Virus record (IMG/VR): IMGVR_UViG_3300031565_000002
Direction: 5' to 3' (one strand)
Length of the DNA stretch: 64,000 nt
From: an uncultured virus (IMG/VR IMGVR_UViG_3300031565_000002)
Taxonomy: Duplodnaviria; Heunggongvirae; Uroviricota; Caudoviricetes
The notes beneath the pieces were generated by a model, which was not told the origin of the DNA, searched no databases, and saw only the letters and a program-made list of their open reading frames with translations. Numbering within the stretch: position 1 is the stretch's first letter; each line of letters opens with the position of its first letter. Positions 28,221 through 31,956 of the stretch are shown here, in pieces. Position numbers and translations under genes: made by a program.

Positions 28221-28952
28221 CTACTTCTTTAACTTCGCTAAAAGCCTTAATACTTCGAGATACAACCATACCATCGTAACTAATATTCCGAAAGCACAAT
28301 ACCATTCCATGTACTTCGGTGCACCCCTACTTATTGATCTCTCTATAGTGTCAAAATCAAGTATTAAATTTAAAGATGCAACAACCACGATACCTATACT
28401 GATACCAACACCAATCCATCCACCCTCATGAATATACGGAACATGTATATGAAAAATTGCTCTCATTAATATGTCGGCAATATATACAAGGCAAATTGCC
28501 CCAGTCGCTGCTATAACTCCTGCCCTAAAACCCTGAGTAGCACGTATAAGCCTCGCTTTATATGCTAATAACATTGTAATCAGTATACCAAACGTCAACA
28601 TTAATGCCTGTGATACAATACCAGGATATTTAGCATTAAAAACTGCTGATACACTCCCTAATACAACCCCTTCCAGAATAGCATAAACAGGAGATGTAAA
28701 CATTGAAATCTTTGGATTAAAAATAGTAACAATGGCAATCACAAAACCTACAAGCAAAGCGGGAATAACAAACCCTGGAAATCCATCTGTCGGAGTAATA
28801 CTCCACGCCCATCCAGCCACGACTACCAAAAGAATAGACAAAAACCCAGTCCTATTAATAGTCCCCTGCAACGTCATTTGTGTATAATTAGCTACATCGA
28901 GCCCTCTAAATCTTCTGTCTGAGAGTGCTGGATTAGATGTGCGCATTATCAC
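28221..28952 (-). CDS. Bax inhibitor-1/YccA family membrane protein
   Basis: MRTSNPAL start, YAILEG, LILDFD.IE, PKYMEWY.AFG..VT.VWLYLEVLRLL. Confidence 0.9.
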   Translation of the reverse strand: MIMRTSNPALSDRRFRGLDVANYTQMTLQGTINRTGFLSILLVVVAGWAWSITPTDGFPGFVIPALLVGFVIAIVTIFNPKISMFTSPVYAILEGVVLGSVSAVFNAKYPGIVSQALMLTFGILITMLLAYKARLIRATQGFRAGVIAATGAICLVYIADILMRAIFHIHVPYIHEGGWIGVGISIGIVVVASLNLILDFDTIERSISRGAPKYMEWYCAFGILVTMVWLYLEVLRLLAKLKK

Positions 28953-29005
28953 TCCTTTTAAATAGTTAATAAGAAACGGTGGTGGGAAATCCCACCACCT
29001 TATAT

Positions 29006-29080
29006 TGGTACGCCCGAGAGGACTTGAACCCCCGACGCGCAGATCTAGAATCTACCGTTCTGCCACTGAACTACAGGCGC
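29006..29080 (-). tRNA. amber suppressor tRNA (CTA anticodon)
   Basis: Stem GTAGA/TCTGC closing loop TTCTAGA; complete cloverleaf with CCA. Confidence 0.85.
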
Positions 29081-29083
29081 ATA

Positions 29084-29377
29084 TTATGCAAGCGGTAACT
29101 TCTTGAATACCTCCCCCGTATCTATACAGGCAATAGCAGTCAATTGGCTATGAAGATCAGGCTCATAGAACCCAACCCATTTTTTACCTTTATCGGTAAG
29201 TTTTTCTGACCATAGCAACAGAACTTTTTCATTAGGGACACCTAAATGAATTAATGTGGAATTATTCCACTCTCGATATGCATTTAAATCGCCCCTAAGA
29301 GAATATTCAGAAATCGCATGACCACCCTGTACGTTACGATAGGTTTCATCAAGATCTCTACGCACAAGCACGTACAT
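29084..29377 (-). CDS. peptidyl-tRNA hydrolase 2-like protein
   Basis: MYVLVRRDL..VQGGHA, F.EPDL..QLTAIA, KLPL motifs of the Pth2 fold; start uncertain. Confidence 0.7.
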   Translation of the reverse strand: MYVLVRRDLDETYRNVQGGHAISEYSLRGDLNAYREWNNSTLIHLGVPNEKVLLLWSEKLTDKGKKWVGFYEPDLHSQLTAIACIDTGEVFKKLPLA

Positions 29378-29669
29378 CTTCTTCTGTCTGCGAGTATTCA
29401 TCGATAATCTCCTGAATAAGGTCTTTATTAGGCTCATTCCCCTCTCTACATTTCGGTTCAATTTGCTCATAAGACCTTCCTCGCATCAGGCTATATGCAA
29501 TATGCTTATGCCTATATTCTCTCCTAAACTTTAAAAGAGCGTACTGCAGACTTCCTGCATACTCTCCTTTTTTCTGTGTATCTTTTGTCTCAATTTTTGT
29601 TTCTTTAATCTTTACCGCCATTTCCTTTAACTCTTCTTTGAGAGTCTTAAAATTTTTCTTCTTTTCCAT
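29358..29669 (-). CDS. hypothetical protein
   Basis: 103-aa ORF overlapping the Pth2-like gene; RBS within a hairpin. Confidence 0.7.
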   Translation of the reverse strand: MEKKKNFKTLKEELKEMAVKIKETKIETKDTQKKGEYAGSLQYALLKFRREYRHKHIAYSLMRGRSYEQIEPKCREGNEPNKDLIQEIIDEYSQTEEDVRACA

Positions 29670-29734
29670 GATTATATCCTTGTTTAAATTGTTGTTTTAG
29701 TTAATAAATAATCGACAATCAAGAATATAACCAC

Positions 29735-29788
29735 TTATGGCGGTTTGTATATCGTAACCTATGTAGGCGCTAAATTAATCTACAACAT
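29735..29788 (-). promoter_or_regulatory. amber-interrupted leader ORF ML*INLAPT*VTIYKPP(TAA)
   Basis: AAGGAG RBS, ATG TTG TAG ... TAG ... CCG CCA TAA, then RBS-occluding hairpin arm. Confidence 0.65.
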
Positions 29789-29857
29789 ACGATTCTCCTT
29801 ATTAATAGGGTTTTTAAAATTTTCACTTATCATTAAGTTAAATTGATTCATAGTTAT

Positions 29858-29886
29858 AATATAACAAACAAGACTAATTTCGTCAA
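29858..29886 (-). promoter_or_regulatory. sigma70-type promoter
   Basis: TTGACG-17 nt-TATATT. Confidence 0.75.
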
Positions 29887-29953
29887 TAAATTAATAACTT
29901 TTTTTATAAATACGAATTATTAACTTATTTATTTGCCATCTTTTAAAAAAGAT

Positions 29954-30028
29954 TGGAGCGGTAGATGGGACTTGAACCCACAACCATCACCTTGGAAGGG
30001 TGACGCTCTACCATTGAGCTACTACCGC
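29954..30028 (-). tRNA. tRNA-Gly(TCC)
   Basis: Loop CTTCCAA, U73, CCA. Confidence 0.92.
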
Positions 30029-30031
30029 ATT

Positions 30032-30688
30032 TTATTTAAATTGTACATTCTTTTTTATATCAAGTTTTATATTAAATTTATCAAAACCAGCAAATCTTAA
30101 CATCGCTACTTGATCAGCATCGTAATTGAGCACTCTAACAGTATCAAATATCCGAAATTTATCAGGAAATAATTTCTGCAATTTACTTGCAATTACATAA
30201 TAATCATCGTAATATTTATTAATAGCGTCTTCTTTAGGGAGATCATACTTTGGATACATAGGATCCCATTGACCATAATCATCGTAATCACCATTTTCCC
30301 AATGCTGCGATTTCCTAGATGTCCAGTGATTAAATTCTCCCCTTTCTGATTTTGTCGCCTTCATAAAACTCCTAACAACAAGGTCTTTATCTCTCTTTAG
30401 ACAGATAACCTTAAACTCAACATTACGCTTAATATCCCTATCTTCCAATTTCAAAATAGTCTCAATATTAGGCAGATGATAAAAAGATACATCGCCAACA
30501 ATAGCCCCAGGTCTGGCCAATAAATTACTGATTATCCTATACATAAATATAGGATTGGCTCTCCAACTTGTCCATGTCCGGCCATACTCATGAGAAACAT
30601 ATTTAACATCGGGCTGCTCATTCAACAATGCAGCAAGGCTTTGAGTTCCACAACGTCCGGTACCAATACCAAAAATAATTCTTTTCAA
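30032..30688 (-). CDS. sulfotransferase-like P-loop protein
   Basis: IFGIGTGRCGTQSL..LL and L.RD...VRS motifs. Confidence 0.6.
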   Translation of the reverse strand: MKRIIFGIGTGRCGTQSLAALLNEQPDVKYVSHEYGRTWTSWRANPIFMYRIISNLLARPGAIVGDVSFYHLPNIETILKLEDRDIKRNVEFKVICLKRDKDLVVRSFMKATKSERGEFNHWTSRKSQHWENGDYDDYGQWDPMYPKYDLPKEDAINKYYDDYYVIASKLQKLFPDKFRIFDTVRVLNYDADQVAMLRFAGFDKFNIKLDIKKNVQFK

Positions 30689-31125: not shown

Positions 31126-31956
31126 TTAAATCAACTCCCTCGCTCCCTTGAGCATATCCCTTGTAACGCTTAAATCATTGCAATACCAAGCGTCCCACAT
31201 ATAATCTTGAATATACCTGTATGGGATATAACCATAACCATCAGCGCCCCAATTCTCTCCCCAACTATTCTTAACTTTTATAAGCCTTTTATTATCATCG
31301 TACCCACATGCACATAAAGCATGTCCGCCATAACAATATTCTGGATTCGCCGGTCTTGAAATAACGCCAGTTTTATCTACGAAAAAAATCTCTTCAAAAC
31401 AAGCAATCCCTATTACAGCCGGTGTTTTACGGAGTGCCAATAAAAGCTCATCAAGATTATTAATCCTAAAATAAGTACCAACCAAAGACCATCTAGCAAC
31501 AAGTTTTGCCCATCCACTAGGCTCACCCTTCACTTCATCAGAATAAGGCCAAGCCTTTTCGCATGGGACTCCGATACGATTCAAAACTTTCATTGCTGCC
31601 CTTATTGATGTCCCTTCTAAATCGGGCCACTCATCAATCTTTTTGCATGACCAATAAATCCAAGACTCTGATAAATCATAATACTTACCGTCTCTATGGT
31701 CAAATTTACCGGCTTCAACTTCTTCTTTATGTTCCTTTTGCTCCTGCCACTCCTTCATTGCAGCGACAGCAAACCCAACGCAACTTCCTAAACCTCCCTG
31801 ATTTTTAACGGGCGACATAAGATTGCTATGGTCAACAATAGTAGGGACATCTGAATTAAACCTACTTTTTAACTCATCAATACTGAAACTATTCAAAAAA
31901 GGAAAATCTCTCTTATCGTCAGGATCTTTCCTGAGATTTAATTTGAAATCCATCAT
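31126..31956 (-). CDS. papain-family (C1) cysteine peptidase
   Basis: NQGGLGSCVGF, GGHA, KNSWG..WG..GY. Confidence 0.92.
   Translation of the reverse strand: MMDFKLNLRKDPDDKRDFPFLNSFSIDELKSRFNSDVPTIVDHSNLMSPVKNQGGLGSCVGFAVAAMKEWQEQKEHKEEVEAGKFDHRDGKYYDLSESWIYWSCKKIDEWPDLEGTSIRAAMKVLNRIGVPCEKAWPYSDEVKGEPSGWAKLVARWSLVGTYFRINNLDELLLALRKTPAVIGIACFEEIFFVDKTGVISRPANPEYCYGGHALCACGYDDNKRLIKVKNSWGENWGADGYGYIPYRYIQDYMWDAWYCNDLSVTRDMLKGARELI

Follow-up and report, generated by a model that had tools for sequence, protein, structure and literature searches.

Why would a phage whose genes fit the standard genetic code keep an amber-suppressor tRNA in the same unit as a short leader that amber codons interrupt? 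The question is raised by a locus on the 64,000-nucleotide (nt) stretch of DNA analysed here, termed the window, which comes from an uncultured virus of the Caudoviricetes (IMG/VR record IMGVR_UViG_3300031565_000002). Its leader open reading frame (ORF), with two in-frame TAG codons, precedes two protein genes, referred to as gene A and gene B, and a tRNA gene with anticodon CUA. An earlier, sequence-only reading had interpreted this arrangement as a switch, in which only ribosomes that read through both ambers reach a slow Pro-Pro-stop site and unmask the ribosome-binding site (RBS) of the next gene. Comparison with related loci supports that interpretation on four counts, namely, the conservation of the TAG codons and Pro-Pro ends, the frame kept through them, a hairpin that covaries with the RBS it masks, and the codon match found in the locus L046. 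Based on these comparisons, the unit is likely a translational switch that reports whether UAG is read as sense. Its elements in the window are as follows:

29858 to 29886, minus strand: promoter-like sequence TTGACG-17-TATATT with TG before the -10 element, the best match in 28800-30100 (10/12; a match to consensus only).
29795 to 29800, minus strand: Shine-Dalgarno (SD) sequence of the leader, AAGGAG, 6 nt upstream of the leader ATG.
29735 to 29788, minus strand: leader ORF, ATG TTG TAG ATT AAT TTA GCG CCT ACA TAG GTT ACG ATA TAC AAA CCG CCA TAA.
29782-29780 and 29761-29759, minus strand: the two leader ambers.
29743-29738 and 29737-29735, minus strand: the leader Pro-Pro and the leader stop, respectively.
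29720 to 29732, minus strand: anti-SD arm, GGTTATATTCTTG, with two bases between the leader stop and the arm.
29670 to 29682, minus strand: SD-containing arm of gene A, CAAGGATATAATC, which abuts the ATG at 29669.
29358 to 29669, minus strand: gene A, 103 amino acids (aa), TAG stop.
29084 to 29377, minus strand: gene B, 97 aa, predicted Pth2 fold, with a 20-nt overlap with the end of gene A.
29006 to 29080, minus strand: tRNA with anticodon CUA, class I, with an encoded CCA end, 3 nt past gene B (ARAGORN; Rfam tRNA model, 54.7 bits).
28968 to 28999, minus strand: putative intrinsic terminator, a 9-bp stem with 7 G-C pairs and a T-rich tail, just beyond the unit as first delimited.

The promoter, the RBS and the leader with its two TAGs and its Pro-Pro-TAA end, all of which the sequence-only reading had listed, are present base for base on the minus strand; read as codons, the leader is M-L-TAG-I-N-L-A-P-T-TAG-V-T-I-Y-K-P-P-TAA. 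The pairing proposed between 29732-29720 and 29682-29670 amounts to 13 pairs, two of them G-U, that cover the SD of gene A, and the downstream order of a hypothetical gene, a Pth2-like gene and tRNA-CUA was found as described, with ARAGORN and Rfam agreeing on the tRNA.

Relatives of the unit were collected by scanning viral and metagenome contigs with gene A, which gave 88 loci, the window included. Two spurious loci (L008 and L009, which match over 18 residues only and lack YRHKHIAY, the invariant motif in alignments of gene A homologues), 15 duplicates and three truncated loci without a start (L050, L075 and L083) were removed. This left 70 distinct loci. The leader counts given below come from the 64 in which 120 nt or more precede the gene A homologue (excluded as shorter: L024, L044, L076, L079, L080 and L088). 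Controls consisted of 200 rounds of mononucleotide shuffles, together with other real 200-nt windows from the same loci. We defined a strict form of the leader, namely, M, zero or one residue, TAG, up to 42 codons free of TAA and TGA, and Pro-Pro-stop; and a broad form, consisting of an in-frame TAG followed by Pro-Pro within 25 codons, upstream of gene A.

First, the strict form was found in 41/64 loci, with a shuffle mean of 0.00 and no occurrence among 1,872 other 200-nt windows, and the broad form in 60/64, with a shuffle mean of 1.26 and 94 occurrences among the 1,872 windows. The four loci that miss the broad form are variants of it: L006 ends in R-G-P-TGA, L039 in R-S-P-TAA, and L023 and L046 have an internal TAA. 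In-frame TAGs and Pro-Pro ends, which the sequence-only reading had named as the features to look for upstream of homologues, are thus kept, and the frame that joins them is kept over leaders of 7 to 47 codons. Second, the strict pattern is specific to this module, occurring once in the 64-kb window and once in approximately 540 kb of three large relatives, both times at this position. The same pattern with an internal TAA or TGA does not occur in the window and these three relatives (approximately 600 kb), and further copies of the leader were found nowhere else in them. Third, the anatomy of the leader recurs. A TAG stands at codon 2-4 in 49/64 loci, and M-X-stop is the opening in 49/64, while the other 15 leaders continue from a longer ORF upstream, which is itself closed by TAG. 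An SD-like motif lies ahead of the ATG in 55/64. Two internal stops are the commonest number (43 leaders), with one in 18 and three in 3, and the internal stop is TAG in 62/64 leaders, TAA in two and TGA in none.

The distribution of stop codons among frames indicates that the leader frame is translated. In the 60 nt up to the end of Pro-Pro, and counting the frame of the Pro codons first, TAG occurs 106, 27 and 12 times, TAA 6, 33 and 50 times, and TGA 1, 28 and 19 times; that is, the Pro frame is enriched approximately fivefold for TAG over the other frames, and TAA and TGA are kept out of it. Such an enrichment, together with such an exclusion, across leaders of varied lengths would not come from a sequence motif or a structure. 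The frame stays in phase through the TAGs to Pro-Pro. Many leaders have few sense codons after their last amber, as in x-I-R-P-P, and the shortest have no more than 2-4 before Pro-Pro, so that a ribosome would have no way to Pro-Pro other than via the ambers. Of 122 internal stops, 112 are followed directly by a purine, a context that favours amber suppression in E. coli. Across the loci, what is conserved is the design of the leader and not its sequence. In L054, L059 and L084 the second leader TAG of close relatives (L055) is TGG, coding for Trp, a one-base change that halves the gates.

What would a ribosome meet at the end of such a frame? Up to and including Pro-Pro, the leaders finish in RGPP at 16 loci, RSPP at three and RDPP at three, and most of the others have K/R-P-P. 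Pro-Pro ends directly before the stop in 47 leaders (L023, L034 and L040 included), and in the rest it is internal, mostly as RGPP; hence the Pro-Pro-stop arrest proposed from the sequence alone describes most leaders, and about a quarter use an internal RGPP-type motif instead. These ends match arrest motifs described in two publications (PMC12992588, PMC3834316). According to the former, RGPP gives the most robust arrest among RAPP-like motifs, being EF-P resistant and tolerant of varied N-terminal contexts, whereas RSPP and RDPP are partly permissive; its survey covered bacterial genomes, and the word 'phage' is absent from its main text. According to the latter, a C-terminal Pro-Pro disturbs termination in every context tested, and the footprint of the paused ribosome extends to +12 nt beyond the stop. 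At the nucleotide level, the last Pro codon is CCT in 22 loci, CCA in 21, CCG in 17 and CCC in 4, and the penultimate one is CCT in 29, CCC in 13, CCA in 11 and CCG in 9, so that CC is fixed at both positions and all four third bases are in use. The leader thus appears to carry a conserved C-terminal stalling motif that is selected at the amino-acid level.

The third component is the hairpin that would mask the RBS of gene A. In the window it belongs to the minimum-free-energy fold of the leader RNA, and the arm-to-arm duplex reaches -17.0 kcal/mol, compared with -6.9 kcal/mol in shuffles (z -5.6). Among the 64 loci, the segment from the Pro codons to +40 nt pairs with the SD and start of gene A at z < -2 in 57, with a mean z of -3.8. 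Measured from the end of the Pro codons, the anti-SD arm begins at -5 to +6 nt in most of them; in leaders of the RGPP class, the role of anti-SD often falls to the Pro codons (CCUCC). When arms were swapped between loci, the mean pairing energy weakened from -15.9 kcal/mol for own pairs to -9.3 kcal/mol, and in 54/59 cases the own pair had an advantage of at least 3 kcal/mol over the average for dissimilar swapped pairs. The stems vary between loci yet remain complementary, which indicates a conserved hairpin whose arm covaries with the RBS of the same locus. No Rfam family matches the leader. In the window, the anti-SD arm falls within the footprint expected for a ribosome paused at Pro-Pro-stop, given the +12 nt reported in PMC3834316. 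At window positions 29729-29745 (minus strand), the leader Pro-Pro-stop is overlapped by AACCGCCATAAGTGGTT, a small hairpin that, with the T-rich run behind it, resembles a terminator; control of the unit may have a transcriptional component as well.

Among the loci with at least 700 nt downstream, ARAGORN identified a suppressor tRNA in 35/45. The 45 distinct suppressor tRNAs collected are of class I and have very different acceptor stems; neither these stems, nor the residues at the TAG inside gene B, nor the TGG leaders, assign an amino acid to tRNA-CUA. The most informative locus is L046, whose leader, ATG ACA TAA ATA TTT AAA CCA CCA TAG, has TAA inside and TAG as its terminator, and whose tRNA has the anticodon UUA instead of CUA. 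The internal stop codon thus follows the suppressor anticodon in one informative exception, which makes a codon-anticodon rule suggestive, not statistical, because L046 is a single locus. The contig of L023, the other leader with an internal TAA, ends 209 nt past gene A. The gene order of L046 also differs, approximately 400 nt upstream of gene A, and reads tRNA-UUA, gene B, leader and gene A; there the frame of gene B runs straight into the leader, so the internal TAA of the leader doubles as the stop of gene B.

Several observations on tRNAs at other loci are recorded here. A CUA anticodon loop noticed by eye in L019 was confirmed by neither ARAGORN nor Rfam. In L027, the site of tRNA-CUA elsewhere (782-856) is occupied by a tRNA called as Val(aac) by ARAGORN; its anticodon loop is odd, and its Rfam score is 47.3 bits. 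In L028 (approximately +320 after gene A) and L017 (approximately +280) there is tRNA-like sequence called by neither program. The lineages L027-L029, in which gene B has an in-frame TAG, include the Val(aac)-read tRNA of L027 and the uncalled tRNA-like sequence of L028. Approximately 1 kb upstream of the module in L002 (2956-3029), ARAGORN reports a four-base anticodon (cttg) in a tRNA that it assigns to no type and that may be frameshift-suppressor-like; in the same locus, from +670 to +1783 past gene A and just after tRNA-CUA, there is a long ORF that by eye resembles a TnpB/OrfB-type transposon protein. Transfer-messenger RNA (tmRNA) genes lie within approximately 1.5 kb of the module in L005 (5521-5906) and L019 (890-1289, minus strand), as found by ARAGORN and Rfam (126.8 bits), a hint of ribosome rescue as a second such function near the suppressor.

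The two protein genes differ in how much can be said about them. Gene A gave nothing significant against Pfam and PHROGs and nothing in a profile search of the PDB, and tblastn returned no match in cultured phages at an expectation value (E) of 0.01 or below. Its predicted structure, a long helical hairpin with two short helices (predicted local distance difference test, pLDDT, 88.7), has no Foldseek match at E <= 0.001, and in a wider structure alignment (VIA-align) the best Z, 7.7, was inside the noise stated for helical hairpins. The family comprises 690 clusters without a Pfam domain; such names as they bear are 'hypothetical protein', except for one stray restriction-subunit label. In eight loci (L004, L047, L049, L052, L054, L055, L060 and L074), none of which has gene B, the frame of gene A enters tRNA-CUA by 22-37 nt; since the frame runs into the tRNA, 5' processing of the latter would cut the mRNA ahead of the gene A stop and leave a non-stop message.

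Gene B falls short of the Pfam gathering score for PF01981 (12.9 bits for a cut-off of 23; E 0.13), so the label 'Pth2-like' given to it from the sequence would not stand on Pfam alone. It is borne out by the family profile, which finds 2zv3 in the PDB at E 8e-4, and by the predicted fold (pLDDT 96.8), which Foldseek matches at probability 1.00 and which has template-modelling (TM) scores of 0.76-0.84 to 2zv3, 3erj, 1wn2, 1xty, 1rlk and 1q7s, that is, to archaeal Pth2 and human Bit1. We conclude that gene B has, as predicted, a Pth2 fold. The catalytic residues of Pth2 are the Lys of a GK motif and the Asp of a DAG motif; gene B keeps Q..HA, and in the alignment Tyr or Gln stands opposite the Lys and an invariant Glu, Glu72 of E-P-D, opposite the Asp. 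The active-site positions are retained in part only. A scan of viral contigs for close relatives with gene B gave nothing, and its homologues were later found beside gene A by direct reading and with a hidden Markov model. They occur in 42 of the 55 loci with at least 300 nt downstream, usually overlapping the end of gene A and followed directly by the tRNA, and are absent from 13. The composition of the unit proposed at first therefore holds for the leader, gene A and the suppressor tRNA, and extends to the Pth2-like gene only in those 42 loci: the core is the former three, because gene B is missing from 13/55 loci and in eight of these tRNA-CUA overlaps the gene A frame. A prediction of the complex between gene A and gene B products scored 0.00, which gives no verdict and is evidence for neither side.

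The family of gene B is spread through jumbo phages, Lak and 'huge' phages included, which allowed us to look for amber codons outside the gene A loci. With tblastn, gene B matched 26 phage records, of which nine were examined, the remainder being near-duplicates of these. In seven of the nine, the Pth2-like gene opens, in frame, with SD-ATG-N(1-2)-TAG. The openings read as follows:

XacN1 and RAS14: ATG AAG TAG ACC.
Xoo-sp13: ATG AAG AAG TAG.
ME3: ATG ACT TAG ATT.
LR756504: ATG ACA TAG ATT.
LR756500: ATG AAG TAG ATT.
LR756501: ATG TCG TAG ATT.

XacN1 (a Xanthomonas phage), RAS14 (Stenotrophomonas), Xoo-sp13 and ME3 (Acinetobacter) are cultured phages. The gated genes include XacN1 ORF364 (L120 1440-1463), RAS14 WAX21615 (L121 1440-1517), Xoo-sp13 Xoosp13_327 (L122 937-963) and ME3 ME3_195 (L123 1468-1506). 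Since SD-ATG-N(1-2)-TAG lies upstream of the annotated starts and in the same frame, the deposited annotations probably miss the true start; in RAS14, homology to XacN1 extends upstream of the annotated GTG start, where there is no alternative start codon. An annotated tRNA with anticodon CTA lies approximately 450 nt upstream of the Pth2-like gene in ME3, and a tRNA-CUA approximately 800 nt downstream of it in LR756500. XacN1 has two CUA tRNAs, and its authors, who read through 18 amber stops, report that a target was not found (PMC5852040). Our candidate target lies ahead of the annotated start of ORF364, as an amber in the third codon, and a search downstream of stop codons would miss it there. 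By eye, the proteins of XacN1, RAS14 and Xoo-sp13 carry HD-like His/Asp motifs in a part fused N-terminally to the Pth2-like domain.

We can now consider what else the leaders might be reading. The read-through of UAG is set by the ratio of suppressor to release factor 1 (RF1), so a leader of this kind would respond to either, and loss of RF1 activity would also switch the unit on. It could then be argued that what the switch senses is the RF1 activity of the host, turning on when this is depleted or inhibited in the course of infection, and that the neighbouring tRNA-CUA serves another purpose, as the 10/45 loci without a suppressor tRNA by ARAGORN might suggest. We find this unlikely: in the other 35 loci the tRNA is within the same unit, two ambers in series would very rarely be read through without a cognate tRNA, even at low RF1, and in L046 the internal stop not only tracks the anticodon, it is TAA, a codon read by RF1 and RF2 alike.

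A different question is whether TAG is a stop codon at all in these phages. The window, with approximately 36% G+C and 40 tRNA genes, every one of them on the minus strand, is the tRNA block of an uncultured jumbo phage, and its similarity to the DNA of known phages is limited to tRNA matches. TAG closes 25 of its 97 long ORFs, and code 11 describes it well: code-11 ORFs cover 0.78 of the window and 0.86-0.92 of the three large relatives (223, 189 and 126 kb; counting ORFs from 100 codons upward), and the gain in coverage is smaller when TAG is read as sense than when TGA is. Neither in the window nor in these relatives is there an excess of TAG-joined ORFs, and in the relatives gene pairs joined by TAG with a startless downstream half are no commoner than pairs joined by TGA. 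Hence the two signs of a code 15-like genome, many in-frame TAGs and a low code-11 density that rises with TAG as sense, are both lacking, and the window phage and its three large relatives appear by sequence to be standard-code phages.

These data bear on a second alternative, in which TAG is an ordinary sense codon and the leader an arrest peptide that senses EF-P, prolyl-tRNA or release capacity at its final stop. TAG-recoded phages with suppressor tRNAs are well known (10.1101/2021.08.26.457843), and only 64 kb of this phage are visible, its gene A protein being recorded on a 192.5-kb contig, so recoding beyond the window was judged from the three large relatives. Moreover, gene B has an internal in-frame TAG in L027-L029 and LR756501. 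This TAG lies in an indel-rich loop, in a column that is a gap in 17 of 30 aligned sequences and varied in the others (L, I, A, C, E); in a loop so free to vary, the identity of the inserted residue should be of no consequence, which fits a gate rather than a coding need. Sense recoding is very improbable on three grounds, namely, the fit of the window and the 126-223-kb relatives to code 11, the early TAG in 49/64 leaders with its roughly fivefold frame enrichment, which a rare sense codon does not explain, and the exchange of TAA and TAG in L046 together with the tRNA anticodon.

A third alternative takes the opening of the leader for the whole of it. Phage lambda bar minigenes are two-codon ORFs behind a strong SD that become toxic when Pth is limiting, and SD-ATG-NNN-TAG could be such a minigene, burdening the cell with dropped-off dipeptidyl-tRNA and thereby linked to the Pth2-like hydrolase, with Pro-Pro and hairpin as separate elements. 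The anatomy is indeed that of a strong SD before ATG-NNN-stop, the unit often encodes a Pth2-fold protein, and tmRNA genes adjoin the module in L005 and L019. Yet a minigene would not require an internal stop that is TAG in 62/64 leaders, TAA in two and never TGA; 13/55 loci lack gene B; and Pro-Pro is in frame with the ATG over 7-47 codons, with so few sense codons after the last amber in the shortest leaders that the downstream part would be readable only by read-through. We consider this explanation highly improbable. Finally, it is scarcely credible that conservation acts on an RNA structure or on a site for protein binding, with the reading frame incidental, for although the hairpin is conserved and short ORFs are easily over-read, the Pro codons vary at their third positions with CC fixed, the stop codons are frame-specific, an SD precedes the ATG in 55/64 loci, no Rfam family is matched, and the leader ends match published arrest motifs.

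For the amber-read-through switch, we infer the following sequence of events, in which read-through, arrest, unmasking, co-transcription of the tRNA and the roles of genes A and B are all deduced. In the off state, a ribosome would start at the SD and ATG of the leader, the release factor would win at the codon-3 amber or at the second one, and the ribosome would leave far upstream; the anti-SD arm would then stay paired with the RBS of gene A, which would not be translated, and gene B, whose translation is probably coupled to that of gene A through their overlap, would be off too. In the on state, tRNA(CUA), made from the 3' end of the same transcript, would read both ambers, so that the ribosome reaches K-P-P-stop or, in other lineages, an RGPP, RSPP or RDPP motif, sequences with an established ability to stall termination or peptide-bond formation. 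Stalled there, it would cover the anti-SD arm, which starts 3 nt past the stop, and free the RBS of gene A. With two ambers in series, the response would be steeper than linear in suppression efficiency.

As to what is switched on, it is conceivable, at low confidence, that genes A and B tune suppression or clean up after it, and that gene B, given its predicted Pth2 fold, hydrolyses peptidyl- or aminoacyl-tRNA. They might act as a brake on suppression by hydrolysing the ester of the suppressor, clear read-through peptidyl-tRNA, or carry out a licensed attack on host translation. If translation of both genes protected the transcript that bears the tRNA, the unit would also exert positive feedback on itself.

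Several results weigh against the switch as described. The 64 loci are relatives, so the counts are not independent events and overstate independence, even if the leaders differ widely in sequence and length. Although the arms pair well, the whole 221-nt leader region of the window is no more stable than shuffles (z -1.25), and in 7/64 loci the arm duplex is no better than shuffles either. Three leaders have TGG instead of the second TAG, and that of L023 has TAA both inside and at its end. No suppressor tRNA was found by ARAGORN in 10 of the 45 loci with at least 700 nt downstream, or by Rfam at its gathering score in L017, L019 and L028, and co-transcription of the tRNA is read from consensus matches to a promoter and a terminator. 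Of the nine phage records with a Pth2-like gene, LR745208 and Lak-A2 show no amber gate; a TAA gate was sought in these two, which have a tRNA-UUA near gene B, and none was seen. Last, TAG closes 10-26% of long ORFs in the window and the three relatives of 126-223 kb, and a second stop is no more frequent nearby after TAG-ended genes than after other genes; as TAG stops are neither avoided nor backed up, strong general suppression would extend many of the phage's own proteins.

It is tempting to speculate, and we do so tentatively since we hold it to be possible but doubtful, that the suppressor tRNA is an orthogonal translational key and not a recoding device, and that the only locks conserved for it lie within its own module, in amber-gated frames, namely, the gene A leader and the first codons or the loop of the Pth2-like gene. 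Since no host tRNA reads UAG, an opened lock would certify that the phage tRNA array has been transcribed, processed and charged, in what would amount to a self-referential checkpoint. Were the tRNA-bearing transcript protected by translation of genes A and B, the module would also become a positive-feedback commitment switch. It would allow a Pth2-type hydrolase and its helical partner to act on the translation apparatus no earlier than the opening of the lock. The immediate neighbours of the unit in the window are a gene for a Bax-inhibitor-1-like membrane protein (PF12811, E 1.5e-71; 28221-28952, minus strand), directly past the terminator, and, upstream, one for a papain-family cysteine peptidase (PF00112, E 9e-15; 31126-31956, minus strand).

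How does the amber-read-through switch compare with known systems? As in SecM-secA, MifM-yidC2, ErmCL-ermC, ApdA and ApdP, a short upstream ORF with its own SD ends in a stalling motif, and an SD-hiding hairpin would be opened by the stalled ribosome; judged by sequence, the leaders combine their own SD and start, the stalling motif, and the SD hairpin under the stalled ribosome. In those systems, however, every ribosome reaches the arrest site and a signal, such as pulling force or an antibiotic, sets the dwell time, whereas here the signal would decide arrival, one to three in-frame stops blocking the way, and the regulated genes adjoin a suppressor tRNA instead of secretion or resistance genes. 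In prfB, which encodes RF2, an early in-frame UGA autoregulates the gene by +1 frameshift. The present leaders resemble it in that an early stop to be bypassed (at codon 2-4 in 49/64 leaders, and in 7/9 records on the Pth2-like gene) would gauge termination capacity and set the output of a translation-related gene. They differ in that prfB regulates the release factor itself; a bypass by +1 frameshift, on a slippery site with an internal SD, was considered here and rejected, as the frame continues in phase through the TAGs, and read-through by a dedicated tRNA would instead be followed, where there is a leader, by arrest and unmasking of the RBS. Like the trp, his and pheL attenuation leaders, these are enriched in codons of the measured tRNA, and the position of the ribosome would pick the RNA structure; those leaders sense a shortage of charged tRNA and act on transcription termination, while here the tRNA is one absent from the host and the step is translation initiation.

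Among phages, the recoded crAss-like, Lak, Jade and Agate phages, with their 'code change modules', also have a phage suppressor tRNA that has been proposed to time expression (10.1101/2021.08.26.457843). They have many late genes with in-frame stops, whereas here the code is standard and conserved amber-interrupted frames were found only in the module of the tRNA; the word 'leader' occurs 0 times in that study. The jumbo phage XacN1 likewise combines the standard code with tRNA(CUA) and many other tRNAs, and it has a gene with a Pth2-like domain. The parts are thus known, namely, arrest peptides, masking hairpins, prfB-type stop gauges and tRNA-codon leaders, and their combination as a suppression sensor was not found in the literature: full-text searches returned no suppression sensor tied to a phage suppressor tRNA in a standard-code genome, although papers outside their coverage could have one.

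Arrest-peptide control has so far been known to read force, drugs or metabolites. If our interpretation is true, the unit would be the first natural sensor of suppression that we are aware of, full-text searches having returned none, and whether a stop codon is read as sense would be a new input for arrest peptides. As compact natural reporters of amber suppression, the leaders could serve work on genetic-code expansion, and two unnamed families, those of gene A, with its 690 clusters, and of gene B, gain an experimental handle. Suppressor tRNAs of standard-code phages are not known to have had a target, and for those of XacN1 its authors found none (PMC5852040); the module would supply a conserved, testable target, and with it a reason for the suppressor tRNAs of standard-code jumbo phages. 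If the key-and-lock reading were also true, the unit would be a natural gene circuit that runs on a private codon, and would provide the target that the 'orphan' suppressor tRNAs of XacN1 have lacked. With a tRNA, a gauge of its activity, and enzymes acting on tRNA esters, the module may be a stage before full stop-codon recoding.

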